Positions 14,340-39,182 of a DNA stretch of 43,345 bases are shown one piece after another. The notes under the pieces were generated by a model. It made no database searches. It worked only from the letters and a program-made list of their open reading frames with translations, and was not told the DNA's origin. Each line of letters opens with the position of its first letter. Position 1 is the stretch's first letter. Both the position numbers and the translations under genes were made by a program. The stretch covers positions 1 through 43,345 of the IMG/VR virus record IMGVR_UViG_3300005805_000156, one strand, 5' to 3'. Source of the stretch: a virus. Lineage: Duplodnaviria > Caudoviricetes.

Positions 14340-14376
14340 GCAGGCTTGTGGATCTTTCTAAATACGGAGTAGAATA

Positions 14377-15702
14377 ATGGCATTTATCTTTATTGATAGA
14401 AGAAAAGCTGGAAAAGGCAAATCTACTTCAAATAGACAGAAATTGATCAAGCGCATCAAGAATTTCATTAAAGTTGCAGAACCAAAGAATATTGGTACTG
14501 GTGGTGTAAGTGGGACTGGTGTTGGTGCTAATAACACCAGTCCAATTAAAGTTAGTGCGGAAGCACTAGAAGAACCACATTTTCTCTACGCTGAAGGTGG
14601 GGAAGAGACCTTAGTATTCATTGGCAATTTTGAGTATGATCGTGGAGATGTCCTAGACTTTCCACAATCAAGCGCTAAATCCTCAAAGGCTGGACTTGGT
14701 GAAAATGGGGAAGATGATTTCATCGTCAACATCGCGCGTGATGAATTTTTAGATCTGTTCTTTGAAGACTGTGAACTACCCAATCTCTCCGCTGAGAAAT
14801 ACACGGAAAAATTGGATGTTATTCAACAACAAGCAGGATTTTCTACAACAGGCAATCCCGCGCAACTGAGCATTATTAGGACGTACAAACAATCTCTTGG
14901 TAGGCGTTGGGCAATCATGGGCCCCTACAAGGAAGAGCTCCGGGAGCTCAAAGAAGAATTAGAAGAGCTCACCAATAAGTATGGATCAGAACCATCTCAA
15001 GAGGAAGTACGGGCAAGAAAGGCTGAGATAGAAGAAAGAATCATGGCACTCCATCGTAAGATGAATGCTCTTGATTGTTTTGAAAATGCTGATCTACGGT
15101 ACAGAAAGAAAGAGGCCCGACCACTAAAAACTGTTGATGCTGTACTCATCATGAGCATGGATATCTCTGGGTCAATGGATGAGAACAAGAAGAAAATAGC
15201 TAGAAGGTGGTTTGCCTTGCTCTATGCATTCATCAAGAGACGCTATACAAATACTGAATTGGTTTTCATAGCGCATACAGAAGAAGCATTTGAGATGAAT
15301 GAACAAGATTTCTTCACTACCAAGATAAATGGAGGAACCAAGGTATCTGCTGCCCTAGAGCTCATCAACAACATTATCAAAGACCGATATGATACTGCCA
15401 CCACTAACATCTATGTATCCCACGCAAGTGATGGAGACAACTATGACAGTGACAATCCTGTAGTCAAGGACATACTCATAGGTGATGGGCATCTCATGAA
15501 TAAAATCCAATTTTTTAACTATGTTGAAGTAGGTTCACAGCGTGGCTGGCTGATCAGCAACGACAGTACCACTAATCTATGGGACACCTATGATGATGTA
15601 AGAAATGCTCAGCCCAAGAGAAAGGTAACTCTTTCTGTGATAGAACATGCCGAAGACTGCTATCCTATATTTAAGAGAGTTTTCAGAAAAGAAAATTCTT
15701 AA
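14377..15702 (+). CDS. yeaH: YeaH/YhbH (DUF444) vWA-domain protein
   Basis: FIDRR..GK.KS..NRQ, MIDAS MDISGSM, FI.HT..A.E, GGT.VS.AL, NIY..HASDGDN. Confidence 0.92.
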   Translation: MAFIFIDRRKAGKGKSTSNRQKLIKRIKNFIKVAEPKNIGTGGVSGTGVGANNTSPIKVSAEALEEPHFLYAEGGEETLVFIGNFEYDRGDVLDFPQSSAKSSKAGLGENGEDDFIVNIARDEFLDLFFEDCELPNLSAEKYTEKLDVIQQQAGFSTTGNPAQLSIIRTYKQSLGRRWAIMGPYKEELRELKEELEELTNKYGSEPSQEEVRARKAEIEERIMALHRKMNALDCFENADLRYRKKEARPLKTVDAVLIMSMDISGSMDENKKKIARRWFALLYAFIKRRYTNTELVFIAHTEEAFEMNEQDFFTTKINGGTKVSAALELINNIIKDRYDTATTNIYVSHASDGDNYDSDNPVVKDILIGDGHLMNKIQFFNYVEVGSQRGWLISNDSTTNLWDTYDDVRNAQPKRKVTLSVIEHAEDCYPIFKRVFRKENS

Positions 15703-15726
15703 AGACAGGAAACGAGAGGAAAACAA

Positions 15727-17217
15727 ATGTCACCATTAATAACTTCTAGGACAGACTGGACTCCTGAGCTTCTTCAGGAAATATGGGCCCACATAGAAGA
15801 CATAGCTAAAGGAGATCTGGGGCTAGATTACTACGATCCTCAGTTTGAAGTAATCTCCGCAGAGCAGATGATAGATGCATATGCGTCAGTTGGTATGCCA
15901 GTAAACTATCATCACTGGTCTTTTGGTAAAGATTTTACCAAGAACATGACCAAGTATCAAAAGGGTAGAATGGGTTTGGCATATGAGATAGTTGTTAATA
16001 CAGATCCATGCGTGTGCTACCTCATGGAGGAGAATAATGCTGTTACTCAGACTCTTGTCATGGCGCATGCGGCCGCCGGCCATTCGTTTGTTTTCAAGAA
16101 CAACTACATGTTCAAAGAATGGACCTCTGCAAGTTCTATTATTGACTACATGCTCTTTGCCAAGAATTACATACGTGACTGTGAGAGTCGGTATGGAGAA
16201 GAAGAGGTTGAACAAGTTCTTGATGCCGCACATGCTCTAAGCATTCATGGTGTTGATAAGCGTAAGCGCAGCTACAAGAAGAGGCTGAATGAAGAGGAAC
16301 GGGCTCGTCATGAATTGGAGAAGGCAGAGGACGAACAGCGAAATCTAGACATCATTCTCAAGAAAACTTCAGTTGTGGAAGAGCACGCGCAGAAAGAAGA
16401 AGATCTAGATTCAGTTGGTGATGAGGAGAATTTGATCTACTTCATCTACAAAAACGCACCAAATCTTCCACAGTGGAAGCGAGAAATTCTAAGAATAGTC
16501 TACAAAATTCAGCAGTATTTTTATCCTCAGGGCCAAACCAAAACCCTTAATGAAGGCATGGCCACATTTACTCACTTCTACATTATGGATGAGCTAGAAA
16601 AGAGAGGTCTCATCTCTGATGATGCTCAGTTGGCGTGGCTACACCTGCACTCAAATGTAATCTACCAGCCTGACATTACTAGCCGACACTATGATGGCTC
16701 ATTCAATCCGTACGCGCTTGGATTTGCAATCTTAAATGATGTTAGGCGCATCTGTGAGGATCCCACTGATGAAGATAGAGAATGGTTCCCACAGCTCGTT
16801 GGTGCAGATTGGCGGGAAGAGGTTAGAAATGCTGTAGCAGAGCACAGAGATGAGAGCTTTATTCAGCAGTATCTCAGCCCGACCCTGATTAGAAAGCTGA
16901 GAATGTTCTCGGTTGATGTTAAACAATCAACCGGGGTGGTGACAGAAATAAGTGATGATGTTGGCTACAGAAACATTAGAAACATCCTATCCAACTCCTA
17001 CAATTCAGTAAATAGAATTCCAGAAATTGTTGCCAAATCAGCTAAGATGAGAGGTGACAGAACGCTTACACTGGAATATATTCCTTTTAGAAATCGTGAT
17101 CTACACAATGCATACGCCAGTAAAACACTGAAGCATGTTAGGAATCTATGGGGATATCCAGTGGAAATAGTGCGGCAGGGAACGGCTAGCACCTATACCT
17201 ACATGAGTATTTCTTAA
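15727..17217 (+). CDS. spoVR: SpoVR/YcgB family protein
   Basis: EQMIDAYAS.GMP..Y.HWSFGK.F, GLAYEIV.N, LVMAHA..GH..FKNN, QYFYPQ.QTK..NEG.ATF.H, NPYALGF. Confidence 0.95.
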   Translation: MSPLITSRTDWTPELLQEIWAHIEDIAKGDLGLDYYDPQFEVISAEQMIDAYASVGMPVNYHHWSFGKDFTKNMTKYQKGRMGLAYEIVVNTDPCVCYLMEENNAVTQTLVMAHAAAGHSFVFKNNYMFKEWTSASSIIDYMLFAKNYIRDCESRYGEEEVEQVLDAAHALSIHGVDKRKRSYKKRLNEEERARHELEKAEDEQRNLDIILKKTSVVEEHAQKEEDLDSVGDEENLIYFIYKNAPNLPQWKREILRIVYKIQQYFYPQGQTKTLNEGMATFTHFYIMDELEKRGLISDDAQLAWLHLHSNVIYQPDITSRHYDGSFNPYALGFAILNDVRRICEDPTDEDREWFPQLVGADWREEVRNAVAEHRDESFIQQYLSPTLIRKLRMFSVDVKQSTGVVTEISDDVGYRNIRNILSNSYNSVNRIPEIVAKSAKMRGDRTLTLEYIPFRNRDLHNAYASKTLKHVRNLWGYPVEIVRQGTASTYTYMSIS

Positions 17218-17246: not shown

Positions 17247-18224
17247 GTGACAACATTTAAGCAATTTTTGAGGGAGGGAGGAGGTGCAACGCGGGTGTTC
17301 AATCCGTCTCGCGCTTCGGCTAGCGACATTACTGAGGCACTGCACTTTGCTTCTGGGTTAAAAACGCTTGGAATGTCTCCTCAAGAATTACGGGCATCTC
17401 TGCTTGGGTCTGCTGATGTGACTGCCTTGCACGCAGAAAAAGCTCTGACAAGTGGAGATGTAGATGTTGCTGTATCTGCGCCCTCTGACGATGAAGAGCT
17501 CAAGAGGCGCATGACTGAGGTATATGATGAAGCCGCTGCGCACCTGAAGAAGATCTACGCTGGCGATCCAGAGCACAGTGGTAAGAAGATTGGTGAAAAT
17601 AACTTTGGTACTCGGGTGGTGTCGCTGCCCGTACCACTCTTCAAGGATGGAGCCATACGTAAGATAGTTCAGCTGGATCTCATGTTTGTTAAGGATGTTG
17701 ACTGGGCAAAGTTCGCATACCATTCAGCGCAGCACCGCGAAGAGAATGGTTCAGCGTACAAGGGAGTAGTGAGAAATGTACTACTCATGAGCACCATAAT
17801 TCATCATAGAGAGCCAGGGAAAGATTTTGTACACTACGATCCAGAATCTGGAAACGTCATTGCTCGAGCCAGCAGGTCATTAAAGCTGGACTCTGGGATG
17901 GAGCGGTTGTTCAAGCTAGCGAAGCGCAGCAAGACGGGTAAATTTACCAAAGAACTGCAGAAAGTCAGCCCTCAAGATCTAGAAGCTTTCCTCAAAAATG
18001 CCGGATTGGACTATAAATTCTCACATGATCCGGATATCATCAGCGATCCAGATAAGCTGGCGCGGTTGTTGTTTGGCCGAGGAGTACGGGCAAAGGACAT
18101 AATGAGTGCTGAGGGTATCATAGAAAAAATACAGCACCTGCCAAACGCAAAAGAGATCCTTGATCATGCAGTTAAGGAGTTTGAAAAAGGTGGCATTCCT
18201 ATTCCTAAGGAGCTGAGCTCCTAA
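17247..18224 (+). CDS. Pol-beta-superfamily nucleotidyltransferase, possible head-internal protein
   Basis: LLGS...SGDVDVAV, third Asp in VQLDLM, YKG..RN; N-terminus (GTG) MTTFKQFLREGG. Confidence 0.7.
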   Translation: MTTFKQFLREGGGATRVFNPSRASASDITEALHFASGLKTLGMSPQELRASLLGSADVTALHAEKALTSGDVDVAVSAPSDDEELKRRMTEVYDEAAAHLKKIYAGDPEHSGKKIGENNFGTRVVSLPVPLFKDGAIRKIVQLDLMFVKDVDWAKFAYHSAQHREENGSAYKGVVRNVLLMSTIIHHREPGKDFVHYDPESGNVIARASRSLKLDSGMERLFKLAKRSKTGKFTKELQKVSPQDLEAFLKNAGLDYKFSHDPDIISDPDKLARLLFGRGVRAKDIMSAEGIIEKIQHLPNAKEILDHAVKEFEKGGIPIPKELSS

Positions 18225-18382
18225 CACCGTATCCTGCTACGCTTCAGTATTTTAAGTTCTCTCAGAGATTTAAATAATTTACAGCTTAAAACCCTTCAAG
18301 TTTTAAGCTGACTCTATCTATGATAAAATGCTCCTATACTCATAGGCTGCACCCGCACTCCCAATCACATATAGGAAATCAC

Positions 18383-19279
18383 ATGCCAAATTTTGAACTG
18401 CATCCAGCAATACAAGAAATTCGCCATGAATTTGCACGTCTGTTAAATGAGAAGCAATTCACTTCAGTAAATCGTGAATCATCAATGACAGGCCTGGTAG
18501 GCAGCAGTACTATTGAGATAGTTGGGGCATCATTCATTGCTAGTGAAGATTCTATCTTTGGCGAAGTAAATTGGGATTACGTTCAACGAGAAGAAGAATG
18601 GTATAATTCCATGGATAGATGCGTGCACAGCATCCCAGGTGGAGCTCCTCAAATCTGGCGAGCAGTTGCTGATCGCGATGGTATGATCAACAGCAACTAT
18701 GGCTGGGCTATCTATTCACCTGAGAATGGATTTATTCCAGATATCAATATCCAATCATGGAGAACCACTGCACAGCGAGATCGTGCCGAAAAAACCATGA
18801 CCACGTGGACAGAAGGTTTCTACTCAATGACTGAAATAATCGAGCTGTACGCATCATCTCAATATTCACGCGTGCTGGAAGAGCTGAAGAAAAATCCAGA
18901 ATCTCGACGAGCAGTCATGATCTATACCCGTCCTTCCATGTGGTTAGACTACAATAAAAATGGTCGCTCAGACTTCATGTGCACTAACACCGTCCAATAT
19001 CTACAGCGTGGTGGTAAACTGCACGCAATCGTACAGATGCGTAGCAATGATGCCATTTTCGGATACAGAAATGACAGAGCATGGCAGGCCCATGTTCTAC
19101 AGAAGCTCTCAGATGAGCTGGGTGTAGAGCCTGGAATTATTCATTGGCAAGTAGGTTCACTTCACGTTTACGCTCGGCACTACTATCTAGTAGATCACTA
19201 TGTAAATACGGGATCAATCAACATTACCAAACAAGAATATATGGAGCGGTATCCCGATTCTCCATACGCTTCAATCTAA
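18383..19279 (+). CDS. gp42: dCMP hydroxymethylase (T4 gp42-like, thymidylate synthase fold)
   Basis: INSNYGWAI, NPESRRAVMIYTRPSM..DYNK.G.SDFMCTNTVQY, MRSND.IFGYRND.AWQ and GSLHVY.RH. These are near-identical to the T4 gp42 motifs I recall, including the dCMP-specifying Asp. Confidence 0.93.
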   Translation: MPNFELHPAIQEIRHEFARLLNEKQFTSVNRESSMTGLVGSSTIEIVGASFIASEDSIFGEVNWDYVQREEEWYNSMDRCVHSIPGGAPQIWRAVADRDGMINSNYGWAIYSPENGFIPDINIQSWRTTAQRDRAEKTMTTWTEGFYSMTEIIELYASSQYSRVLEELKKNPESRRAVMIYTRPSMWLDYNKNGRSDFMCTNTVQYLQRGGKLHAIVQMRSNDAIFGYRNDRAWQAHVLQKLSDELGVEPGIIHWQVGSLHVYARHYYLVDHYVNTGSINITKQEYMERYPDSPYASI

Positions 19280-19289
19280 TAGGAGGATC

Positions 19290-19670
19290 ATGAGCATGAA
19301 TGATAAAATTAAACAGATTTTTAGTGCGCAGTTAGAAAAAGCAGCAATCTGTTCTGGAAATTACCTGGAAGGACGCTCAAAAGAGGCACTCTTTCAAGAT
19401 TGGTTACCCATGCTGCGTGGTGGTGATGTTCGAGAAAAAGTCCGTCATTTTGAAGAAGTTCTCAATAAAAAAATAGCTATCTGGGAGTCTCGTGCTGGGC
19501 AGAAGGAACTATATTTCATGATAGAAACTACTTGTGAACGCCCTCAGGTTATGAAGATTTGGGAGTGTGATCTTGAGAACTTGGATGACAGCTGTGATAT
19601 TGATCTGAGCTCAGTGAGGTATATCGAGGGAAGCACGATCCCGGTCTTTAAAGGTCGCACTGCAATCTAA
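19290..19670 (+). CDS. hypothetical protein
   Basis: AGGAGG RBS; immediately follows gp42. Confidence 0.7.
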   Translation: MSMNDKIKQIFSAQLEKAAICSGNYLEGRSKEALFQDWLPMLRGGDVREKVRHFEEVLNKKIAIWESRAGQKELYFMIETTCERPQVMKIWECDLENLDDSCDIDLSSVRYIEGSTIPVFKGRTAI

Positions 19671-19689
19671 CCAAACCAATCACAATATT

Positions 19690-21426
19690 ATGAAATATGA
19701 GAAGCACATCTTAGATGCTTTCACGCGTCTGGGTTTCAGTCCTCGCACTGGGCAAGTTGAAGCAATCAACAAAATTTTGATTGCATACCTAGATAATAAG
19801 GTGCAGAATGTTATACTGTCTGCACCCACTGGAACAGGTAAGAGTCTCATTGGAGCTGTTACTAGTGATGCGCTCACAGCCATTCTCAACCCATCAGTTA
19901 CGAATGCAGTAAAATCATCTATAGGACTGGTGAGCACAAATGTGCTAGCCAAGCAGTATGATGCAACATTCAGCTCTCTGCACAGCACAAAGAAATACAT
20001 CATGCTCAAGGGAGCCAGTAACTACGCGTGCAGTGCGCTCTCCTCACAAGATCAAGAAGAGAGCGCGGAGAGCTGCGCGTGGTACGACATGGTTAAATCT
20101 GGTGGTGAATTTGACAGCATAGTCACACAACACTGTAACTCGTGTGAATACCTTAACACCAAGAAACTCAAGAACTCTGTGAGGCACCTAACAACTAACT
20201 ATTCTTATTTCTTCATAGACAGGATGTACACTGGTAAGTTCGAGGATCGGGATCTCCTGGTATGGGATGAGGCCCACCTCATTAATGATCTGTTTAGTGA
20301 GCACAATGCAATCTATTTCTCACAGGCTAGACTTCAAGCAACAGCAAAAGAAATAGCTGAACTCGTGCGCCTAACCGATCTGGAAATCGCCAAGCTCATT
20401 TCTTCAGTGGCCAAGGACTGTGCTAAGAAGGATAAGATAAATGAGCAGAACTATGAGAGCTACCTGCGTGCTCTGCTAAAAATCTATGACTACGCCAAGA
20501 CAACAGGACAGACCCAGGCCGAGCGCGCACTGAGAAGTGGGCAGATGGGTCAGTATACCAAGCTCACCCGCTTTGTCAAGAAGTATGAGGGCCTCATCTG
20601 CAAAATAGATGATTACTTCAACTATGGATATGATCACATCTTTGAGTATAAAGAGGATGAGTCTGCCGTTTCCGTCAAGCCAATTTTCATAGGTGGCATG
20701 TTTGATGCACTCCAGGCATCTCCTAGAAATCTGTTTATGTCAGCAACAGTGAGCAATGAGTTCATGACCAAAACGCTGAAGCTCAATCCAGCCTCAACTG
20801 AGTTCATCAAGCTGCCACCCACCTTCTCTCCAGAGAACAAATCAATTATTTTCTTCAATCCACTCTCGCTTAATTTTACCTCTCTCCAGAATCAAACGAC
20901 GATTGATTCACTGTGCGCTAATATCCTGAAAATAGTTAAGAAGCACACAGCTGATGGAGAGCGTGGAATTATCTTGACACCATCATTTAAACTCCAGAGC
21001 TCAATCATCTCAGCGCTCAAGCCAGTGAACAAGAATGTGAAAATATTTGAGCACATGCAGGGCAAGAAACTTGAAGAGGTGCTCGCTCTGTTTAAATCCT
21101 ACACAGGAGGACCGGCTGTACTGGTCTCGCCGGCTATGTTTGAGGGAATTGATCTGCCGGGTGATCTGTCCAGATACCAGGTGTTCGTAAAGGCTCCATT
21201 CCCATCTCTTGGCGACAAGAGGATGAAATTTATTCTAGATCACTATCCTGATCTCTATGAAGAGATAACTCGCATGAAGATAGTTCAGGGCGCAGGAAGA
21301 AGCGTGAGAAGTATAGATGATCACGCCACCACCTATATTCTAGATAAGAATGCCCAGCGACTCATGATGTCGCCAAAGAATGTGTGGAAAGATGAATTCT
21401 ACATGGCCGTCAAGAGCCTGCTGTAG
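19690..21426 (+). CDS. DinG/XPD-family SF2 helicase with Fe-S cysteines
   Basis: Q motif R.GQ, APTGTGKS, KG..NY.C with further Cys, DEAH, MSAT, EGIDLPGD, K.PFP.L.D, QGAGRSVRS.DD. Confidence 0.9.
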   Translation: MKYEKHILDAFTRLGFSPRTGQVEAINKILIAYLDNKVQNVILSAPTGTGKSLIGAVTSDALTAILNPSVTNAVKSSIGLVSTNVLAKQYDATFSSLHSTKKYIMLKGASNYACSALSSQDQEESAESCAWYDMVKSGGEFDSIVTQHCNSCEYLNTKKLKNSVRHLTTNYSYFFIDRMYTGKFEDRDLLVWDEAHLINDLFSEHNAIYFSQARLQATAKEIAELVRLTDLEIAKLISSVAKDCAKKDKINEQNYESYLRALLKIYDYAKTTGQTQAERALRSGQMGQYTKLTRFVKKYEGLICKIDDYFNYGYDHIFEYKEDESAVSVKPIFIGGMFDALQASPRNLFMSATVSNEFMTKTLKLNPASTEFIKLPPTFSPENKSIIFFNPLSLNFTSLQNQTTIDSLCANILKIVKKHTADGERGIILTPSFKLQSSIISALKPVNKNVKIFEHMQGKKLEEVLALFKSYTGGPAVLVSPAMFEGIDLPGDLSRYQVFVKAPFPSLGDKRMKFILDHYPDLYEEITRMKIVQGAGRSVRSIDDHATTYILDKNAQRLMMSPKNVWKDEFYMAVKSLL

Positions 21427-21487
21427 AAATAAGATTTCTTATCTGAGTGACAGTGAGTTATAATAAACTAACTTATAAGGATTGCAT

Positions 21488-21703
21488 ATGAATTTTGATT
21501 TAGAAGATGTGAATCATATATTCCGTCACCAACAGGACACTACTGAATTAATACTCAAGGTATATAGCGGGGATAACTATCTTACTGTATCAGTCCCTCG
21601 AAAAGATATTGCCACTCTTATTCCATCTCTCAGTGCCTGGCAGTACATTGGCACTGATGCAGCTGGTACTCCAATCTTTCAAACTATTCCATCTACATTT
21701 TAA
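21488..21703 (+). CDS. hypothetical protein
   Basis: AAGGA RBS; TATAAT at 21459-21464. Confidence 0.55.
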   Translation: MNFDLEDVNHIFRHQQDTTELILKVYSGDNYLTVSVPRKDIATLIPSLSAWQYIGTDAAGTPIFQTIPSTF

Positions 21704-21706
21704 GCC

Positions 21707-22285
21707 ATGACCAAAGATTTTTCTACTCCTAGAGTTTTTATTATCGAAGGATTGGACCGTCTAGGAAAATCCACTCTCATAGAAGGTATCTTAGATGTAG
21801 GTGGTTTCTACCAAGTTATTCATTTTCAGAAACCAAAATTACTGAGCGCCTACCAAGAGAGCGCCATGAGCCGAGCAGATGCACTCTTCAAATATCAGAA
21901 GAGATCTTTTGAAACCTTGTTTGAAATGGTGAATTCAAATGGATATTTTATCTTCGATCGGGCGCACCTTGGTGAATTTGTTTACTCCCCACTTTATCGT
22001 AACTATGGTGGTGATTATGTTTTTGATCTTGAGCATATTTTTTATGTTGACATGAGGGCAGATGTACGACTGATTCTGCTCACAGAAGATTTATCTAAGA
22101 GCACTCATTTTGAAGATGATGGCCTGTCATTTGATATTACCAAGCGTGAGCAGGAGCAGCAGCTGTTTTTACAGGCATTTGACCGATCGGTCATTAGAGA
22201 TAAAAGAAAGATCTGTGTGACGGGCGCAGATGGTCATTTCAAACCCAAAGAAATAATTCTACAGGAAGCTCTTAAGAACAAATAA
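21707..22285 (+). CDS. thymidylate-kinase-like dNMP kinase
   Basis: P-loop IIEGLDRLGKST; FDRAHLGE.VY..LYR. Confidence 0.85.
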   Translation: MTKDFSTPRVFIIEGLDRLGKSTLIEGILDVGGFYQVIHFQKPKLLSAYQESAMSRADALFKYQKRSFETLFEMVNSNGYFIFDRAHLGEFVYSPLYRNYGGDYVFDLEHIFYVDMRADVRLILLTEDLSKSTHFEDDGLSFDITKREQEQQLFLQAFDRSVIRDKRKICVTGADGHFKPKEIILQEALKNK

Positions 22286-22296
22286 GGGAAGTGAAT

Positions 22297-23415
22297 ATGA
22301 AAGTAGCCGTTATTAAATTAGGATCACGCATCTCGTTCAATTCTAATGATACAAGCGGTGGAAATGGAGAAGCCCGCTCTATCATCAAGATGCTGCATCA
22401 AGGTGGTGCAACTGTTCAGATCTACACCAAGATTCTTAAGAAGGATACACTGATTCCGGACTATGAGTGGTTCGATCTGAGTGATCCCACCACTCTCTCA
22501 GATGGTGTTAGGGCAGATGCTCTAGTTGTTCTCAATGGAAATGTGAACTTCTTCGGCGGGGCTGAAGATCCAGAGCAGCTGCTTAACTATGTAGTTATTA
22601 ACCAATTCAAAGGCCCGGTGTTCTATATTCTCTGTGATCCAGAGCTCACTCTCAAACAGGTCTGGCCTTCGGTTGAAAAGAAGAGCTGGGCAGCTAATTG
22701 GTTACAGACAGACCTACTCATCACTCGAGATGACATAGTCTACATAAGTCAGCCACATGATGTGGAAAAAGTAGTTGCTTCACTGGGTAAGAATGAAATC
22801 AGACCAGCAAAAATCATTCACTATCCATTTGAAAAATTCCCGTGTCTAAATGAGCGCCTACCTTTCAATCCATCGCCAAGCGTGGATCTGTCGTACGGTG
22901 GAACCATGCGGGGCGGCAAGCGGCTCAAGAAGATGGTTAAATTCTACTTTGGTCATCCATCTCACATTTCTGTAGAAATGTTTGGAAAAATAACTGAGGA
23001 AGATTTTGATACCAAGCACACATTTGGTCTACGAGCACCCACATTTACAGGAGTGGTCAAATACGCTGACATGCTGCCCAAGATGAATGATGCCATGAGC
23101 CACTGCGTGATTGGAGATCCTTGGTATGAAGAGATCAATGATATGGCTCAGCGCTGCTACGAGAGCATTTGGTCTTCAGTTGTAACTTTTGTAGACGCAG
23201 ATCTTGATACTCTTCGCAGAGTCTATGGAGCAGACAAACAGTTGGCTGATTTTCTATATGTAAGTGACAGATTGGAGCTCTCAGAAAAAATAGAGCTGCT
23301 ACGCTGTTCTCCAGAGATCAGACAACAGATTGTGGAGGCTCAGTTTGACGCCATCAATTTCAATGCTAAGAGCTACTGTCAGGCATTTGTGAACATGTTG
23401 TGTGATAGGCGCTAG
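22297..23415 (+). CDS. bgt: DNA beta-glycosyltransferase (T4 BGT-like, GT-B)
   Basis: Colinear with T4 BGT as I recall it: MK.A.I..G, E (GEAR), N..NFFGG, catalytic Asp (YILCD), Q.WP.V....W, YGG..R.G.R..KM..F, AP.FTG, IGD..Y, R..E, YV..R.EL. Confidence 0.9.
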   Translation: MKVAVIKLGSRISFNSNDTSGGNGEARSIIKMLHQGGATVQIYTKILKKDTLIPDYEWFDLSDPTTLSDGVRADALVVLNGNVNFFGGAEDPEQLLNYVVINQFKGPVFYILCDPELTLKQVWPSVEKKSWAANWLQTDLLITRDDIVYISQPHDVEKVVASLGKNEIRPAKIIHYPFEKFPCLNERLPFNPSPSVDLSYGGTMRGGKRLKKMVKFYFGHPSHISVEMFGKITEEDFDTKHTFGLRAPTFTGVVKYADMLPKMNDAMSHCVIGDPWYEEINDMAQRCYESIWSSVVTFVDADLDTLRRVYGADKQLADFLYVSDRLELSEKIELLRCSPEIRQQIVEAQFDAINFNAKSYCQAFVNMLCDRR

Positions 23416-23508
23416 ATCTAGGTTATAATTCAGATTTATTGAGAATGATATTTCTGTAAATACCTCGGGCCCGGAATTTAAAGTATTACGTCTAAGAGGA
23501 GATAGATT

Positions 23509-25398
23509 ATGAACATTGTGATATTATCAGGTGGAACTGGTTCAATTGCTCTACAGAGAGGACTCTATGGTCTCTTAGACAGCTCTCAAGATGGTGTATC
23601 TACCAAGATATTAACTAACGCATACGATAATGGACTTTCCACTGGAGCAGTGCGTAAGGTATGCGGTGGGCACATCCTAGGACCAAGTGATGTGCGAAAG
23701 AATCAAACCACACGCTTAAAACTTGAAAAGCCAAATTCTCCATGGGCAAAATTTTTAGATATACGCTTTACTGTAGAGACGCAGGCTGCCAAAGATTACT
23801 GCCTTGAGAAGATAGCAGAACTTGAACATGATCTTCAAGCATACGCCGATGTTTCAGACAGGCACTCACTGGTTAAGAAAGTGTCAAACACTGCTCTACT
23901 GCGAGAAGCCGTAGAGCAGTTCTTCAAGCAACAGGTGGCATCAAAAATAGACTACAACGATTTTTCACTTGCCAATATTATCTACGCCGGATTTGCATCC
24001 GCAAATAAGAATTCTCTTCGTCAGGCGGCCACCATCATGGCTGGTTTAATGGGAATCAGTGATAATGTTATAGTCAATGATGACCGATCTCTATTCTTGG
24101 GCGCCACCACGAAGAGTGGCATACGAGTAACCGATGAGGGAGATATTGTATCTTGGGGTCAGATCCATGATCCATTCGTAGACATATTCTTCACAGATGC
24201 CTCCGGAGAACCTGCGCGGCCTGTACTGTGCGCTGAGGCCGAGGCTGCACTGAGCCGAGCAGATCTCATTATTCTTTCATCAGGAACTCAATGGTCATCC
24301 CTCATACCCACCTATGCATCAGAGGGTTTCAAGCAGGCCATTGAGAGAAGTTCAGCAAAGATTCTCATGGTCATGAATCGGCAGCCGGACAAGGATAGCC
24401 CAGGACAGAGCGCCAGTGATATTATCAAGCTGCTGGTTCCAAAATATTTCCCAGAAGGACGCATTAGGGTTATTCTTGATTCTACCTCAGATGACCAAAT
24501 GTCATCCCTAGATGATGAGGCACTCTCTCTTGTGCAGAGCGCCGATACCTTTGTACTAGGTGATGATTTTGCTAGAAATAAAACTCTTCACAATGCTGAT
24601 GCACTTGCCAGAGCGGTTGCTCTCACTTATTTTAAAGAATATGTTGATTCTGAGGCATTCATCTTCGATTATGATGACACTCTTATTGGACGAGGCAATC
24701 ACATGCCACGTTCTTCCATCTTGAACAAGTCACTGCTCGCTCGTCTAATCAAAAGAGATGTTAATATTTCTATCTGCACTGGTAATTCAATCAAGGCTAT
24801 AAACCTAAGAAGCACACCAATAGGACAAGAGGTATTACAGATACCAGTATTTGCAGATGGAGGCGTCAATGAGTACTACTACACTCTAAATTCCTCAGAT
24901 GATCCAGATCTTCCGGCATATGAATTTCGTAGAATTATAAATGAAGCGTGTCGCATACACCCAACCGAAATTGAAGGAATACTGAACGCTCTGGTAAATC
25001 ATGGAATTCCTATGATGAAGATTGAAAATAGAGGTGGTGTCATGCTGAGCATCAAACCCATAATTGAAGAATACAGGTCAGCGGTTTTGAGCTTGATAAA
25101 ATTCATCATAGCTGGAACAGATTTGGTGGCACACGCAACTGGTCGAACAACTATCGATATTCACAGTAAAAATCTTTCTAAACAGCACACGGTTAGACAC
25201 GCTCTAACTTCTATAAAAGGACAGCTTACATTTATTGGCGATGAATTTAGACCTGGTGGAAATGATAATCCCGTCAAACAGATGTTCAATCCTAGAGTAG
25301 CGTGTCTAGCCGTTAAAGATCCAGCGGAGACCTCTTTCTTCTTAAAGACTCTGCTCATCAAGAACAATGCCCCGGCAGCACTTCAATCACTAGTATGA
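23509..25398 (+). CDS. fusion: CofD/YvcK (UPF0052)-like transferase + HAD-IIB (phosphomannomutase/Cof-like) phosphatase
   Basis: N-terminal half: IVILSGGTG, YDNG.STG, GPSDVR, ADLIIL..GT..SSLIP. C-terminal half: FDYDDTL, CTGNS, G.TTIDI....K, FIGDEF.PGGND. Confidence 0.85.
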   Translation: MNIVILSGGTGSIALQRGLYGLLDSSQDGVSTKILTNAYDNGLSTGAVRKVCGGHILGPSDVRKNQTTRLKLEKPNSPWAKFLDIRFTVETQAAKDYCLEKIAELEHDLQAYADVSDRHSLVKKVSNTALLREAVEQFFKQQVASKIDYNDFSLANIIYAGFASANKNSLRQAATIMAGLMGISDNVIVNDDRSLFLGATTKSGIRVTDEGDIVSWGQIHDPFVDIFFTDASGEPARPVLCAEAEAALSRADLIILSSGTQWSSLIPTYASEGFKQAIERSSAKILMVMNRQPDKDSPGQSASDIIKLLVPKYFPEGRIRVILDSTSDDQMSSLDDEALSLVQSADTFVLGDDFARNKTLHNADALARAVALTYFKEYVDSEAFIFDYDDTLIGRGNHMPRSSILNKSLLARLIKRDVNISICTGNSIKAINLRSTPIGQEVLQIPVFADGGVNEYYYTLNSSDDPDLPAYEFRRIINEACRIHPTEIEGILNALVNHGIPMMKIENRGGVMLSIKPIIEEYRSAVLSLIKFIIAGTDLVAHATGRTTIDIHSKNLSKQHTVRHALTSIKGQLTFIGDEFRPGGNDNPVKQMFNPRVACLAVKDPAETSFFLKTLLIKNNAPAALQSLV

Positions 25399-26177
25399 AA
25401 TCAACAGATCTATATATTATTGCAGCTGGGAAGGGGTCTCGTATGGGAGGCTCCATCCCCAAAGCCCTGGTTCCTATCAATCCTGGCGAGCCTAATCTAA
25501 CAACCACGTTGAAGCAGGTGGGTCACGCATTTGAAACAGTCTATGTGGTGACAAATAACCTGATTCAAGATCAGTGGTCAGAATACTTTAATGGCATTGG
25601 ATCATTGGGAAGGAATGTGCATAATGTACCAATCTCTTCTGGATTAGGAGATGGTCATGCTATTCATCAAGCATTTCAGTGCGTGCAGCAACACCAGGGT
25701 GAGATTGTTATTTGTTGGGGAGATGTATTCATTCAACATGCGGAAATAGTGGATGAGCTGCTCTCTAGAGAGATGAACTCCACGAGTGGCTTGCTGCCAG
25801 CTGTTAGGGAACAGAATCCATACGTAAGCCTACTGGTTGATTCATCCATGCACTGCACAAGCGCTGATTTTTCAAAATATGGTGAATCACACCCATCAGG
25901 ATTCCACGATCAGTCCATATTCAGGTTCAATAAAACCTATATAGCACGAGCTCTAAAGGATCTACACGCTGCATTCTGGAAAGGTGGTCGTTACATTACA
26001 CCAGGTGGTGAGCTCTCACTCCTGCACGCATTTCATTATCTATATAATGTGGGTGAGCCTCTTCAGGTATATGAAACAGATTATCCCACTCTAAGCTTTA
26101 ATACTCCTGAAGAAGTTGCACAAATTCAAGCAGAAATTAATAAAAAATGGAATCTTGGTGAACGTAATGAAGTATAA
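25395..26177 (+). CDS. NTP-sugar pyrophosphorylase-like nucleotidyltransferase (GlmU-N/MobA fold)
   Basis: IIAAGKGSRMGG.IPKALVP, G.G.A, CWGD, FNT.EE; ATGA-coupled to the upstream fusion. Confidence 0.88.
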   Translation: MKSTDLYIIAAGKGSRMGGSIPKALVPINPGEPNLTTTLKQVGHAFETVYVVTNNLIQDQWSEYFNGIGSLGRNVHNVPISSGLGDGHAIHQAFQCVQQHQGEIVICWGDVFIQHAEIVDELLSREMNSTSGLLPAVREQNPYVSLLVDSSMHCTSADFSKYGESHPSGFHDQSIFRFNKTYIARALKDLHAAFWKGGRYITPGGELSLLHAFHYLYNVGEPLQVYETDYPTLSFNTPEEVAQIQAEINKKWNLGERNEV

Positions 26178-26328
26178 TAGCCTAGTAAAATACATGCATT
26201 CTTCTAAGATAAAGTTGGCATTCTGTATTCTAGCGATGGTGTTTCTACCTGTTTCTATTCTGGTGATACTGTGCTACCTCTTCTATGAGGTGTTTAGAGA
26301 CGTTTATAGAAGCCACTCGCGCAAATAA
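26167..26328 (+). CDS. small membrane protein
   Basis: 53 aa with one long hydrophobic stretch; fills the operon gap. Confidence 0.5.
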   Translation: MKYNSLVKYMHSSKIKLAFCILAMVFLPVSILVILCYLFYEVFRDVYRSHSRK

Positions 26329-26341
26329 TTTGGAGATGATC

Positions 26342-27025
26342 ATGACACATAAACCAGTATTAGTTACACTAACAGCCCCCACATCAGCAGGCAAGAGCCA
26401 CCTATTAAATTATATCAGAGATGTGGCAGCTCTGCCCTGCTTGGTTAGCACCACCACTCGTTCCCCTCGAGCAGGTGAGCGTGAGGGTGTTGATTACTTC
26501 TTTATCAGTGAAGAGCGCTCACGAGAGATTGAAGAAGCTGATGGATTTGCCGAGTTGGCACTGTATGGTGGTGTGCGATATGGTGTTACTCGAGATGAAT
26601 TAGCCAAGAAACTATCAAGTGGATTAACATTCCTAATTGTTGAACCAAGCGGTATCGACAGTTATGTGGCTCCCGCCTTAGAAATGGGGGCGCTTCATCT
26701 AAAGTATTTCATACACACAGAATTAGAAACACGAATCCAAAGATTTAAAGATCGCATACTAGCTGATATTGAGCGTGATTTTTCAAAAGACCTCTCTGTG
26801 CAGAGCACTGTGGCTGCAGTATCTCAAACAGTCTCCAAACATGTTGATCGTCTGGTTTCCATGACCACAGTTGAATCACAGTGGGGTGACGCACACCATT
26901 GGGATAGAACTCTGTTTGGAAAATCTGATCCAGCAGAGAATCTGGCCATTATCTTGAAAGACGTACAGCGCATTCTTAAAGAAGATGCTGAAAGAACAGC
27001 TTGGATAATTGCACGAGCAAACTAA
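26342..27025 (+). CDS. gmk: guanylate-kinase-like NMP kinase
   Basis: TAPTSAGKS, VSTTTRSPRAGEREGVDYFFIS, E...Y.G..YG; GGAG RBS. Confidence 0.85.
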   Translation: MTHKPVLVTLTAPTSAGKSHLLNYIRDVAALPCLVSTTTRSPRAGEREGVDYFFISEERSREIEEADGFAELALYGGVRYGVTRDELAKKLSSGLTFLIVEPSGIDSYVAPALEMGALHLKYFIHTELETRIQRFKDRILADIERDFSKDLSVQSTVAAVSQTVSKHVDRLVSMTTVESQWGDAHHWDRTLFGKSDPAENLAIILKDVQRILKEDAERTAWIIARAN

Positions 27026-27047
27026 CTACTTTTAAATGGAGGCATAC

Positions 27048-27473
27048 ATGGATAACCAAGTAACTTTTTGGCCAGCAGACATTGAGGACATGCACGCTAA
27101 ATTTGGGGTTAATCCGGTAGTAGATAGACTCACTGATTCTCAACTACGCGATTACTTAAAATTTCGCCTAGACATGGTGAGAGAAGAAGTAGATGAAGCC
27201 CATGCAGCATTCTCTAACAAGGATGCCGATGGTGTAGTTGATGCTCTAATAGATGGTATAGTCTTTGCCATAGGAACGCTTGATGCTTTTGGTGTAGATG
27301 CATATACCGCATGGAATCGAGTGCACGCTGCCAATATGAGTAAGAATCCAGGCGTTAAGCCCGGTCGTCCAAATCCGTATGGTTTCCCAGACTTGATTAA
27401 ACCAGAAGGTTGGGAGCCACCCTCTCATCTAGATAATCTTGGAATGATTCCTAGAGCTCTAGATGTAAAATAA
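27048..27473 (+). CDS. MazG-like/PRA-PH all-alpha NTP pyrophosphohydrolase
   Basis: EE.DE, DALID...FA.G, AW.RVH.ANMSK, KPEGW.PP; GGAGG RBS. Confidence 0.85.
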   Translation: MDNQVTFWPADIEDMHAKFGVNPVVDRLTDSQLRDYLKFRLDMVREEVDEAHAAFSNKDADGVVDALIDGIVFAIGTLDAFGVDAYTAWNRVHAANMSKNPGVKPGRPNPYGFPDLIKPEGWEPPSHLDNLGMIPRALDVK

Positions 27474-27553
27474 GATTTGAAGCTGAGCTTCAAAACCAGA
27501 CTGTATGCACCGTCTGGAATTATCATTGTATAAGATATAAGGAAATAAAATAT

Positions 27554-27924: not shown

Positions 27925-29472
27925 ATGAAGGTCTATGGTGACATTAATTTATTAAACAACAAACTCTTAAATGCTGAATTCTCAGACAACATAACAATTG
28001 AACAGCTACCAAACTTTCCTGTAGCTCATTCAGTTGGTCATATTGCATTTGTGGATGATGTGCTCTATATCTGTATAGACACAACACCATCAGATGTCTG
28101 GGTACCACTCACCAGAGAGTTAACTGCATATAAGCATTCACAATCACCTGCTTCTACTACCTGGGAGATTCAGCATGATTTGAATACCACTGACATCACT
28201 GTCATGGTGTATGACACCACTGACCATGTTATTATCCCCGATAGTATCAGGGTCACTGGAGTTAACACTGTAGAATTAGGCTTTGCAAGTGCCATCGCTG
28301 GTAAAGCAGTGATTGTTACTGGTAGCATTGACGGTCCTGTTAGGAAGACCCCTGATGGCAGCGTTATCGTAGATTGGTCTAACATAGATAACAAACCCGC
28401 ATTTTCCACGGTGGCTACCAGCGGCAGCTATGCGGATCTAACAAACAAGCCTTCACTTGCCACAGTAGCTACTAGTGGTAGCTTTACCGATCTAAGTAAT
28501 ACTCCCACACTGAGTAATATTTTCGTTGTCGCAAAAAATGGAAACAATACCACTGGAGATGGATCGTTCAGTAAGCCATTTGCGACCATACAGAAGGCGC
28601 ATGATGTAGCTGAAGCCACTATTGCTTCATCACAAGGTGTCACAATTTTGATTATGCCTGGGACCTATACTGATGCCCTAGCCATTACTAGACCTCGAAC
28701 TGCTTTTGTAGGATTCTCTGGATTTGAATGGAGCACTATCATTCAGACAGCAGTAACCATTACTCCTTCAAGGAGAGTGGCACATCCAGGAAACAGCCCA
28801 TTCTCTTTTGAGAACATTTTCTTGAATGTTCCCAGTGGACAAGATGCTATAACTTTTACCGGAAGCACTTTCAGCGGGGCTCTTAATCTAGATAGAGTTA
28901 GAATCTACACCACAAACGGTAAGGGCATCGTAATGAACAACACCGCCACCGATTTTGACGCAACTGTGGGAGCGGCGAACAATCGAATGAAATGGGTTGA
29001 TGTTGATATTCAGACCAATAACGGCAACAAGAATGCTGTAGAAGTACAGAATGCCTATGGATCAATAAATGGTGGATATTTCTTTAGCGGATCCGCCCAA
29101 GCTGCAGTTATGGGATTAGGAGCAAATGTTACCTGCACAAATTGCACCTTTGAGGCTACTGGCGCCACGGTAGCTTCAGTGGCTACCGGTGGAAGTTTGC
29201 TATCTAGAGCCTCTTCTTTTAAGAATAATCAGGCTGATGCAAATGGAGTTGATGTTGCAGCTAATGCATATTTTGTAGTAGCAGAATGCACGTTTGCTCA
29301 CTCAACCACCGCAAGCAATACTGGTTTTGCAATTAAAGGAGTGACCGGATCTGTTATCATCTACTCGTATCTGACATTTGTGAATAACAATCCAGCAAAT
29401 TTGGTTGTCAACAACAGAGTAAGTGCCGCGGCATCACGCATCCCAATGACGACAGCGATTGCAGCAGTTTAA
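27925..29472 (+). CDS. tail fibre/spike protein with beta-helix (pectin-lyase-like) C-terminus
   Basis: N-terminal W.I.H.L...V.VYD module, (ATSGS[YF].DL.N[KT]P)2 tail repeats, VAKNGN..TGDGS..KPF.TIQKA, Asn/Gly/Thr-rich solenoid. Confidence 0.75.
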   Translation: MKVYGDINLLNNKLLNAEFSDNITIEQLPNFPVAHSVGHIAFVDDVLYICIDTTPSDVWVPLTRELTAYKHSQSPASTTWEIQHDLNTTDITVMVYDTTDHVIIPDSIRVTGVNTVELGFASAIAGKAVIVTGSIDGPVRKTPDGSVIVDWSNIDNKPAFSTVATSGSYADLTNKPSLATVATSGSFTDLSNTPTLSNIFVVAKNGNNTTGDGSFSKPFATIQKAHDVAEATIASSQGVTILIMPGTYTDALAITRPRTAFVGFSGFEWSTIIQTAVTITPSRRVAHPGNSPFSFENIFLNVPSGQDAITFTGSTFSGALNLDRVRIYTTNGKGIVMNNTATDFDATVGAANNRMKWVDVDIQTNNGNKNAVEVQNAYGSINGGYFFSGSAQAAVMGLGANVTCTNCTFEATGATVASVATGGSLLSRASSFKNNQADANGVDVAANAYFVVAECTFAHSTTASNTGFAIKGVTGSVIIYSYLTFVNNNPANLVVNNRVSAAASRIPMTTAIAAV

Positions 29473-29576
29473 CCTATTAAAATGAACTACAGCAGAATGG
29501 AGAACTTGAGCTCTCCGTTCTGCTTTCTACTAATAAATAGATAGTAGTATTCATACCTGCATTGAGAGAATGGCTC

Positions 29577-30725
29577 ATGAAACTTAAAGAATTATTTGAA
29601 GGAAAACTAGGCTTTAATCCAACATCTAGTAGTCTAGATTCTGAGACTGAGCTAAAAGAAAATAGCCAAGCTGACGAGACACGAGATGTGCTACTTGAAG
29701 GTGGATGGGCTAGCACGGTTACGCAATCAACCAAGCTGTTTCCGCACATTGCTAGAGCCGCCGCTGAAATCATGCGTGATAAGTTTGAACGAGACTTTAA
29801 CAAGTTCTTAAAATCTGAGCGTGAACAACCAATCAAGATTGGTAAGACCGTTGGTTCTAGTGCGTACTTTCACAGGGATTCAATCGCTTCACCAACCAAA
29901 GAATACGGCGACATAGACATCATCTTTACAATTCCACGGCTACAAGGAACCTCTGTGGAGAAGAACAAGACGCACTACCAAGAGTTGGTTAAGGCTTTCA
30001 TCAATGAAAAGCGGCCAGAGTATGTCTTTAAGCCTGAGGGTTCAGCTCTAGCGGGTGCGGCAGTAATAGTTAAAGTTGGCGATGAATGGGTGCAGGTTGA
30101 TCTCATAACCACGTTCACAGAGCTTGAGGATTGGACCACGCATCGAATGACACCTGAGCATGGATTAAAGGGAGCTCTCCTTGGATTCATGTACAGTGCC
30201 CTTGCTGAAACACTCAATCTTAGTATAGGTGGAATGGGAGTTCAAGCCAAGCACTCCGGGGATATGCTGGTACCATTTAAGAAACAAAAAGTCGATCACG
30301 TTGATACAGTATCAACTGATTTTGGTAAATTTATTCACCACATATTTGATTATTTCTATAATAGAGCGCGTACCGATGCGGGACAGACTGCTGTACCCAG
30401 CAAACCAAAGATACCAACCGCACTACAGAAGAATCCCGGAATGAAAAGGGATGATATTAAGGCCAGTGATCTAGCTGCAAGCATTAGAGCTCTAGCCCGG
30501 GCATTCAGTGCAAATAATATGTTTGGGCACGGCGATTTAAAACATATTAGCAATGAACATGATTTTTTGCGCCAGATAAAACACTCGTATGAAGAGAAAA
30601 TATCCAAGGCAATAGGTGCTACCAAATTTGATAAAGCAGAGACTGAGAGCGCGCGGGCGCGGGCTGAGGCAACTAAGGACACTCTTCGCTCAAAATCCAC
30701 AGAGCTCATGAATTTATTGACATAA
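29577..30725 (+). CDS. Pol-beta-superfamily nucleotidyltransferase, possible head-internal protein
   Basis: VGSS...EYGDIDII, VQVDL, LKG. The N-terminus is MKLKELFE with LLEGG further in. AATAAATA lies at 29532-29539. Confidence 0.7.
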   Translation: MKLKELFEGKLGFNPTSSSLDSETELKENSQADETRDVLLEGGWASTVTQSTKLFPHIARAAAEIMRDKFERDFNKFLKSEREQPIKIGKTVGSSAYFHRDSIASPTKEYGDIDIIFTIPRLQGTSVEKNKTHYQELVKAFINEKRPEYVFKPEGSALAGAAVIVKVGDEWVQVDLITTFTELEDWTTHRMTPEHGLKGALLGFMYSALAETLNLSIGGMGVQAKHSGDMLVPFKKQKVDHVDTVSTDFGKFIHHIFDYFYNRARTDAGQTAVPSKPKIPTALQKNPGMKRDDIKASDLAASIRALARAFSANNMFGHGDLKHISNEHDFLRQIKHSYEEKISKAIGATKFDKAETESARARAEATKDTLRSKSTELMNLLT

Positions 30726-34503: not shown

Positions 34504-34908
34504 ATGTCTTCACACTGCAACATTGGCGTAGAACATGAGAATGGTTCAATTAGTTATGTATACTGTCACTTTGATGGGTATCCAGTTAACATTACACGCA
34601 TTCTTACACGTTTCTACAACTCCTATGACTCAGCTCTTGCACTAGTTGAGTTGGGAGAGCTGAGCTGTATTGGTAAGACTCTGGACGAGTGCAAGGCATA
34701 TCATCGCGACTTTGGTGAATTCTATGAAGTATGGAATGAGTCGGATGCTGAAAAAATGTATCTACAGGAATACAATTACCTGTTTAGAACCGTGAATAAT
34801 GGTTGGTGGATTAAGAAATGCACCTCTCCCGAGTGGGTGCAGATTGATGATAATTTCAATCCCGCCGCTTGGCAGCTGCGGCTACAATTAGTGCGAAATG
34901 CTGGCTAA
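34504..34908 (+). CDS. phage hypothetical protein with YCH.DGY motif
   Basis: IG.....G....VYCHFDGYP...L...Y, L..LG.LS, YHRD.GE, EY.YLF; AAGGAG RBS. Confidence 0.7.
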   Translation: MSSHCNIGVEHENGSISYVYCHFDGYPVNITRILTRFYNSYDSALALVELGELSCIGKTLDECKAYHRDFGEFYEVWNESDAEKMYLQEYNYLFRTVNNGWWIKKCTSPEWVQIDDNFNPAAWQLRLQLVRNAG

Positions 34909-35442
34909 TAGGTATCCCTGAATACGGGAGCCCTGTAGTAGATGGGCTCTCTGTAATTTTATTAGTTCAGTATTCTCTGTTAGCTGACACCACAGATCAC
35001 ATGAGAAACTCTGCTGTCTAACAGAACCAAACAGTGATGATACATTGGGTGAAAGTGAGTTGAAATAGGATACGTGAACTCCACCACAGTATTCTCCTCC
35101 GTTTTTTGATGACAGAAATGGAAGCCCTTCTAGCATCACATAGCTCTGCTTCTTAGATTCATTTATACTGATTACTCTCACATCGAATGAAGCAAAAAGA
35201 AGTGGACCAAACCGCGTGTAGTCGCTTCCCAGCGATTCGGTCTGAATTGCGGCCCCTCCTGGCCCACTTATTAACTTTGGATTCCAGGTCCCTCGCATGG
35301 ATGAGGGAGAGTCTGAGACCTCTGACTGCTGTTTAACTGAGAGCAGTCCATCATCTGAGATGTTCAGCCCATCACCAATCATGACCAGCCCAAGGCTGCT
35401 GGCCGATGCTATAGAGTTGGATGGCTGCCTGGTATACGACAT
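34888..35442 (-). CDS. fibre-tip-like protein
   Basis: Starts MSY; contains the AS..SLG.V.IG.GL.I..DG.LSV shaft motif and a GTW.P...Y.R.G...GLPF tip motif. Confidence 0.65.
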   Translation of the reverse strand: MSYTRQPSNSIASASSLGLVMIGDGLNISDDGLLSVKQQSEVSDSPSSMRGTWNPKLISGPGGAAIQTESLGSDYTRFGPLLFASFDVRVISINESKKQSYVMLEGLPFLSSKNGGEYCGGVHVSYFNSLSPNVSSLFGSVRQQSFSCDLWCQLTENTELIKLQRAHLLQGSRIQGYLLASISH

Positions 35443-35456
35443 GATGCACCTGTAGA

Positions 35457-36089: not shown

Positions 36090-36102
36090 GCTGCTTTCTC
36101 CT

Positions 36103-36600: not shown

Positions 36601-36602
36601 GA

Positions 36603-37007: not shown

Positions 37008-37084
37008 AGGGTCTCTCCATTCAATCTTGAGTCATTGGGATAACAGTAATTCTGGAACAGTAATTCTGTGCACGGGTAGCATGA

Positions 37085-37642: not shown

Positions 37643-37655
37643 GATAGTATCCCTA

Positions 37656-38327: not shown

Positions 38328-38329
38328 GA

Positions 38330-39122: not shown

Positions 39123-39182
39123 GATGTGTCCTTTAAAGTGATGGGAAGAGCCTCAATCCTCCCATCGCGTTAAATAAAAACT

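Follow-up and report, generated by a model that had tools for sequence, protein, structure and literature searches.

A YvcK-like–HAD fusion and a nucleotidyltransferase form a conserved candidate sugar-donor cassette beside T4-type hydroxymethylcytosine glycosyltransferases

The virus record IMGVR_UViG_3300005805_000156 of IMG/VR (Duplodnaviria; Caudoviricetes) was analysed over its entire 43,345 bases, referred to here as the window. Between positions 18,383 and 27,473 it carries genes for the predicted synthesis and glycosylation of hydroxymethylcytosine (hmC). Central to this run is a pair of genes, termed the cassette: a fusion of a YvcK-like domain to a HAD-IIB domain, and a GlmU-like sugar-1-phosphate nucleotidyltransferase (the nucleoside triphosphate (NTP)-transferase). 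The pair follows a homologue of the T4 beta-glucosyltransferase (BGT), and it is a real, conserved and uncharacterised putative donor cassette tied to the T4-type hmC glycosyltransferase. A first-pass annotation, made from the sequence alone, had described seven co-oriented genes here. All seven are present at the coordinates it gave, on the plus strand (table 1). The run is interrupted by a helicase gene and by three small open reading frames (ORFs; 19290–19670, 21482–21703 and 26116–26328), and the shared orientation is uninformative because nearly every real gene from 1 to 34,900 lies on the plus strand. The NTP-transferase ORF overlaps the fusion ORF by 4 nt. Ribosome-binding sites favour the later starts listed for the guanylate-kinase-like and MazG-like genes.

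Table 1. Genes of the hmC region, numbered from the first base of the window.
Gene product	Coordinates	Strand	Length (residues)	Matches and remarks
dCMP hydroxymethylase, T4 gp42 orthologue (predicted)	18383–19279	+	298	1b49, E 1.7e-73
DinG/YoaA-like helicase	19690–21426	+	578	phrog_2488, E 2.6e-79; bystander in the gene order of the clade
Thymidylate-kinase-like (TMK-like) deoxynucleoside monophosphate kinase	21707–22285	+		phrog_761, E 3.8e-10
T4 BGT-like DNA glycosyltransferase, GT-B	22297–23415	+	372	1bgt, E 9.6e-34
YvcK/UPF0052-like::HAD-IIB fusion	23509–25398	+	629	cassette core; PF01933, E 3e-17
GlmU-N-terminal-like sugar-1-phosphate nucleotidyltransferase	25395–26177	+		cassette core; PF12804; GlmU is the best PDB match, E 4.4e-18
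Guanylate-kinase-like nucleoside monophosphate kinase	26285–27025	+		outside the cassette; PF00625; start likely 26336/26342
MazG/PRA-PH-like NTP pyrophosphatase	27036–27473	+		PF01503, phrog_671; start likely 27048

T4 glucosylates hmC with host uridine diphosphate (UDP)-glucose. Its hmC pathway (gp42, gp1, gp56 and BGT) is matched in the window by a gp42 orthologue with its active-site motifs and by a BGT homologue that keeps the catalytic residues. Residues D197, C200, D223 and D231 of the gp42-like protein correspond to L143D, C146, D169 and N177D of ThyA: the catalytic cysteine, the aspartate that selects deoxycytidine monophosphate (dCMP) and the acidic residue linked to hydroxymethylation are all kept, a pattern common to 19 of 19 distinct linked gp42 homologues. 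The substitution D169N marks the 5-hydroxy-dCMP synthases/hydroxylases of RB69-type phages (PMC13326640). As D223 retains the aspartate where RB69 gp48-type enzymes have asparagine, the base is likely hmC, and a hydroxycytosine/arabinose pathway was rejected. The hmC chemistry proposed in the first-pass annotation is supported, and by extrapolation from T4 the protein is likely a dCMP hydroxymethylase. Relative to T4 gp42 it has an insertion of about 43 residues (approx. 116–158), whose length varies among relatives. The TMK-like gene likely encodes a hydroxymethyl-dCMP (hm-dCMP) kinase; it also adjoins BGTs that lack the cassette. The MazG-like protein is possibly a dCTPase equivalent. The BGT homologue, 27% identical to T4 BGT, scores 65.4 bits against PF09198 (cut-off 27) and retains T4 residues E22, D100, R191, R195, R269 and E272, so its earlier assignment as T4-BGT-like stands. 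Unlike the T4 enzyme it has G21, C113 and Q285 in place of V18, T99 and L268.

The fusion protein comprises a YvcK/UPF0052-like domain (residues 1–375) and a HAD-IIB phosphomutase-like domain (residues 380–620), and its fold is predicted with a mean local confidence (pLDDT) of 94.6. It had been called a CofD/YvcK–HAD fusion. The fusion is confirmed and its N-terminal domain is of the YvcK type, matching YvcK with a Z-score of 31 (root-mean-square deviation 2.4 over 292 residues) against 21–22 for CofD/FbiA. The identity with CofD/FbiA of cofactor F420 synthesis was rejected: the motifs follow YvcK, and in a family tree (FastTree; row YvcK_L350 disregarded as a wrong-frame fragment) the two CofD sequences sit on a long separate branch. 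A general family scan of 45 window proteins found no F420 genes. The domain shares the fold of YvcK/GlmR (UPF0052, TIGR01826), and the family retains seven Listeria GlmR residues (D40, D59, R61, R81, N95, E148 and H301); unlike YvcK/GlmR it is fused to a HAD domain and lies in glycan or DNA-modification loci. Its score against TIGR01826 is 61.6 bits, far below the cut-off of 196. The activity of Listeria GlmR requires D40, D41 and N198 (PMC10128056). Of these uridylyltransferase residues D40 is kept, position 41 is N or D, and N198 is replaced by T or S in 52 of 52 relatives; K64 (52/52) and D/E294 (52/52) are specific to the family. Because of these changes and its own conserved residues, the domain is assigned to a distinct, probably catalytic subfamily. 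The family numbers 406 proteins at 90% clustering among 7,999 candidates scored, and the profile yields 312 representative clusters at E<1e-30, a figure that combines viruses and cells.

The HAD domain has its motifs intact (D387/D389, K558, GDE..GND) and a C2b cap, and is placed with the HAD-IIB alpha-phosphomutases. By fold it matches phosphomannomutase (PMM) and alpha-phosphoglucomutase (alpha-PGM) at Z 17–18; by profile, alpha-PGM (E 6.6e-16) is favoured over the best phosphatase (E 5.9e-6) by ten orders. A viral fold library returned three matches to the fusion, all of them HAD.

The NTP-transferase retains K23 and D110, the counterparts of GlmU K25 and D105. It has no C-terminal acetyltransferase domain, all GlmU models score far below their cut-offs, and it is therefore not classed as GlmU. 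GalU-type enzymes match at E 1e-4 or worse, against 4e-18 for GlmU. GlmU Q76 aligns to I82, and owing to this loss the nucleoside diphosphate (NDP) carrier may be other than uridine. The sugar-binding glutamate of GlmU maps ambiguously, so no sugar size was deduced. A booster of UDP-N-acetylglucosamine composed of YvcK, a mutase and GlmU was set aside because the enzyme departs from GlmU at Q76 and at the T of LGTGH and lacks the acetyltransferase domain.

The association of these genes was surveyed in 43 viral fusion loci (40 from IMG/VR, two GenBank phages and the window), with near-duplicate contigs retained and two ends of one record counted once. The IMG/VR loci were found by an alignment search; a single-sequence search with the fusion gave none. 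The NTP-transferase is present in 42 of the 43 loci and BGT in 40, followed by the TMK-like kinase (28) and the gp42-like gene (27). Fusion identity across linked loci is 27–56% and the gene neighbourhoods are unrelated; chance falls far short of explaining why BGT, fusion and NTP-transferase occur together. Such a survey had been named in the first-pass annotation as a test of its proposal, which it withstood. Searching from BGT recovered the fusion in 38 of 52 BGT loci, with a query alignment built from linked BGTs. The three fusion loci without BGT comprise one at a contig edge, one fragment that is 13% complete and one record that is 99% complete. Guanylate kinase (19/43), helicase (17/43) and MazG (15/43) are restricted to a close clade. 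Guanylate kinase and MazG had earlier been counted as cluster members; they are better left out, as the kinase persists in a sister clade from which the cassette has been lost. Among 50,697 phage records the fusion and the NTP-transferase each match two, the Ralstonia jumbo phage RsoM2USA and an uncultured 462-kb phage; neither matched a T4-like phage there. No sugar kinase, SIS isomerase or epimerase was named among 64 scanned flanking proteins of relatives; one cupin was found (L027). In four loci (L020, L022, L023 and L032) an S-adenosylmethionine (SAM) methyltransferase lies between BGT and the fusion, and in three more (L206, L237 and L286) one is present in the locus. A related methyltransferase stands beside 13 of 79 cellular loci, six of them also with a radical SAM gene. 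This placement suggests methylated versions of the sugar.

The cassette is also found in cells, in bacterial glycan loci. A scan of genome contigs gave 440 relatives, and the analysis kept the 79 best loci, some of which also contributed to the profiles. A nucleotidyltransferase occurs in 72 of the 79, a HAD of either type in 60, and a GT2, GT4 or GT8 enzyme in 67. HAD-IIB is present in 40 loci and a beta-PGM-like HAD-IA in 20, the two together in none, so that two mutase-type families appear to fill one step. BGT or gp42 was found in 0 of 79 within the fetched stretch; at least one locus (L111) belongs to a phage contig within a metagenome-assembled genome (MAG), and its BGT lies where that contig begins. 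Neighbours of the cellular cassette include flippases, GtrA, lipid-carrier-type GT2 and GT1 enzymes. Four proteins (P0223, P0231, P0237 and P0241) are triple fusions of YvcK–HAD with the NTP-transferase, which argues that the three domains act in one pathway; one further protein fuses GT2 to YvcK–HAD, and YvcK::GT2 fusions occur in cells. A constant cassette beside varying transferases, together with the triple fusions, suggests a pathway for an NDP-sugar donor that can be carried from one system to another. In the family tree (FastTree) the fused form from cells falls within the phage sequences (support 0.995). A bacterial MAG contig (L097) holds a fusion 50% identical to that of the window and nested in its phage clade (support 1.0), adjoining a GT1 enzyme and sulfotransferases; phage–cell transfer is possible. 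In two loci (L158 and L171) a YvcK-like gene and a HAD lie in a polyketide-synthase-like cluster with GT1, with no GlmU-like gene in the fetched stretch. When 300 genomes from a single bacterial phylum were sampled, seven matched the YvcK-like cassette. Plasmid matches, either a lone member of the family or YvcK-type genes at a greater distance, do not name the sugar. A link to the fructosylated capsule of E. coli K4 (kfo genes) found no support, an insensitive blastn search having given no match in E. coli genomes.

Whether the glycosyltransferase changes with the cassette can be read from a tree. A total of 114 distinct BGT-like sequences were sorted into 55 linked and 31 unlinked (at least 3 kb of downstream sequence), the other 28 being left out as undetermined. 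On a tree of 67 rows from a quick IQ-TREE run the cassette label requires five changes, which are interpreted as a single gain with four subsequent losses. The stems of the loss lineages measure 0.79, 0.94, 0.95 and 0.98, against at most 0.53 in cassette-bearing clades. Residues follow the same division: the position of T4 L268 is Q in 55 of 55 linked BGTs and in eight of 31 unlinked; every linked sequence has C or F at position 99, where 16 of 31 unlinked ones have T; the V18 position holds G, A, P or T in 55 of 55 linked, but V, I or L in 24 of 31 unlinked, and these 24 take in each of the three loss clades with more than one member. This tracking suggests, indirectly, a BGT donor other than UDP-glucose. 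Genome-wide searches of the loss records found the cassette in none of five and none of four (four are 94, 98, 100 and 100% complete); in a further scan one of five records matched, the positive control. A FastTree tree had placed L294 inside the cassette clade, as if 'reverted' to T4 residues; the maximum-likelihood tree puts L294 and L274 outside, and that idea was discarded. A sister clade (L060, L062, L063, L065, L068, L088 and L287) has the order thymidylate synthase (TS) homologue, helicase, kinase, BGT, guanylate kinase, with the cassette absent genome-wide, distinct BGT motifs and a TS of another subgroup; it is a natural control, perhaps with a different donor. Another BGT clade without the cassette (L071–L074, L218, L226, L232 and L250) has no gp42-like gene in the fetched flanks and carries several other glycosyltransferase-like ORFs after BGT.

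The cassette probably makes a donor other than host UDP-glucose, whose sugar BGT would transfer to hmC. The proposed pathway is as follows. (i) The gp42 orthologue would yield hm-dCMP, which the kinase would pass to replication. (ii) The YvcK-like domain would convert a central host sugar phosphate into the required sugar phosphate, and of all the steps this one is the least secure. The favoured option, with about half of the weight, is an isomerase-like activity preceding a mutase; a kinase-like activity preceding a bisphosphatase comes second, with about a third. (iii) The HAD-IIB domain, whose family is established, would give the sugar 1-phosphate. (iv) The GlmU-like enzyme would form the NDP-sugar. 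(v) The BGT homologue would move the sugar onto hmC in DNA. Candidates for the sugar are a pentose, a heptose or an epimeric hexose, for example mannose, which would equal glucose in mass; the modified cytosine may be undescribed, as the first-pass annotation proposed. By analogy with T4 alone, the purpose is likely evasion of defences such as restriction and CRISPR systems. The layout parallels the route to guanosine diphosphate (GDP)-mannose, in which an isomerase, a mutase and a pyrophosphorylase act in turn. It equally parallels the kinase–phosphatase–transferase routes of RB69 and the heptosyl-hmC cluster, with the YvcK-like domain in the first slot. The proposal of the first-pass annotation that the genes after BGT make the donor is thus supported by linkage in viruses and by pairing with other glycosyltransferase families in cells. 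A more far-reaching version is tentative, a little short of even. Here the YvcK-like domain, through Lys64 and Asp294, would catalyse a reaction new for its fold within an undescribed NDP-sugar pathway. The sugar would be new to DNA, and it might be attached to a carrier other than uridine and bear a methyl group in the lineages with SAM methyltransferases; the donor would also serve bacterial surface glycans, and the cassette would have moved repeatedly between phage and cell.

Other readings account for part of the evidence. The cassette might be a private glucose supply, in which the HAD domain is a phosphoglucomutase, the NTP-transferase makes UDP- or NDP-glucose, the YvcK-like domain steers flux and the DNA contains beta-glucosyl-hmC. 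The best HAD match, a Lactococcus alpha-phosphoglucomutase, agrees with this, as do the T4 catalytic and UDP-binding residues retained in BGT and the role of GlmR in the flux of cell-wall precursors. It is nevertheless unlikely, since the NTP-transferase is GlmU-like with GalU-type enzymes a far weaker match, the BGT changes follow gain and loss of the cassette, and bacterial glycan loci need no second route to UDP-glucose, yet hold the cassette beside dedicated transferases. A decoration in two steps is an improbable alternative. BGT would add glucose, and the YvcK/CofD-like domain would then transfer phospho-X onto that sugar from an NDP-X made by the NTP-transferase, with the HAD trimming or supplying phosphate. 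CofD chemistry is indeed the transfer of a phospho-group from an NDP-activated donor to a polyol, and both the fold match to CofD/FbiA and the cellular YvcK::GT2 fusions would fit. In that case, however, BGT would have no cause to change alongside the cassette, and acceptors vary (DNA, small molecules of GT1, lipid carriers of GT2) while the cassette is constant; for these reasons the second group on the glycosylated base, offered earlier as an option, has become less likely. The motifs, moreover, are those of YvcK and not of CofD. Guanylate kinase, considered as the recycler of guanosine monophosphate for a CofC/CofD-like pair, was rejected in this role because it is not linked. Least probable by far is a sugar for the virion or host surface, with the cassette merely beside BGT. 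The Atlas does hold a 773-residue cluster with a YvcK-like domain in Nucleocytoviricota, and one nearly complete virus record has the cassette without BGT. Against this, BGT adjoins the cassette in most loci across distant lineages and is altered where the cassette is lost, and a scan of 45 window proteins turned up no further glycosyltransferase.

Several observations weigh against the preferred reading, a cassette-made donor other than UDP-glucose that BGT uses on hmC. The record just mentioned (L034/G010, 352 kb, 99% complete) shows that the cassette can serve other ends in viruses. On the BGT tree, well-supported branches force at least three changes only, one linked BGT (L042) also has a long end branch (1.52), and 28 of the 114 sequences do not enter the comparison. 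A nested loss clade of seven rows retains Q268 and C99, and alanine occupies the V18 position in five basal unlinked BGTs, so that no single residue is diagnostic. Positions V18, T99 and L268 presumably line the donor pocket, given their closeness to E22, D100 and R269. Trehalose-phosphate phosphatases tie with the mutases to within 1 Z by fold of the HAD domain. Its closest relatives, alpha-PGM and PMM, are enzymes that a plain glucose route would use too. None of the characterised relatives of the YvcK-like domain is an isomerase: GlmR is a nucleotidyltransferase and CofD a phosphotransferase (PMC10128056).

Phage-encoded donor pathways are already known for RB69 arabinose and for heptosyl-hmC; the version with a YvcK–HAD cassette is new. 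In the arabinosyl-5-hydroxycytosine phages RB69, DLP3 and HY126, a HAD, a kinase and an NTP-transferase make the donor, and the HAD and nucleotidyltransferase genes lie by a TS homologue, a kinase and a DNA glycosyltransferase (PMC13326640). These phages differ in having a D169N hydroxylase, a sugar-phosphate isomerase, a kinase::MurU-like fusion and non-BGT transferases (same source). The window keeps D169 and has the YvcK-like domain and a mutase-type HAD in place of the SIS isomerase and APH kinase; a general scan of its proteins found no sugar-phosphate isomerase or sugar kinase. The heptosyl-hmC cluster on contig 53 of Pyle et al. likewise uses a HAD, a kinase and an NTP-transferase for its donor, and its GT-B enzyme of T4-BGT architecture needs the HAD enzyme and the nucleotidyltransferase to place a non-glucose sugar on hmC (bioRxiv 2023.12.21.572611). 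There, hmC arises through a methyltransferase and a dioxygenase, and a HAD::APH kinase accompanies a cytidylyltransferase (same source), whereas the HAD of the window is fused to the YvcK-like domain. The main text of that preprint contains no mention of CofD or YvcK. Of cultured phages, RsoM2USA (MG752970) alone was found to carry all five genes: TS (ORF 10), kinase (ORF 6), BGT (ORF 2, 45% identity), fusion (ORF 1, 39%) and NTP-transferase (ORF 486, 35%), all five annotated as hypothetical in the record. Its published description, in the sections used, names ORF2 as a beta-glucosyltransferase and ORF486 as GlmU, and these sections give no analysis of DNA bases (PMC8504454). No paper on a YvcK-like/CofD cassette with hydroxymethylcytosine was found in a literature search whose scope did not extend to subscription journals and supplements.

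If the preferred reading is true, the cassette provides large phages with a widespread means of hypermodifying cytosine, 55 distinct linked BGTs having been seen. The sugar that hmC carries influences the range of restriction enzymes, CRISPR nucleases and defence glycosylases able to act on phage DNA. An orphan family of YvcK-like enzymes would become directly testable, and the phage version offers a simple readout, its product being written on DNA by five genes.

The surroundings of the region hold further features. ORFs at 17247–18224 and 29562–30725 have no Pfam or NCBIfam match, and their DxD motifs are read as resembling pol-beta-type nucleotidyltransferases; in 14 of the 43 related loci the former is found at the gp42-like gene or close to it. 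Hairpins at 18282–18310 and 27476–27494 bracket the cluster, terminator-like on the minus strand only and near chance in number. Promoter-like sites (26, against 22.0 ± 4.5 in shuffles) and terminator-like sites (9, against 6.1 ± 2.0) are near the shuffle level, and palindrome avoidance in the window is uninformative (6-mer ratio 0.95). Genes for PrkA, DUF444 (YeaH) and SpoVR are consecutive at 12381–17217, a bacterial stress operon on a phage. Tail-fibre-like genes lie at 2–1582 and 27925–29472. A minus-strand block at 34888–40503 contains small genes, including those for a collagen-repeat protein and a BclA-like protein, and its role is probably virion decoration.

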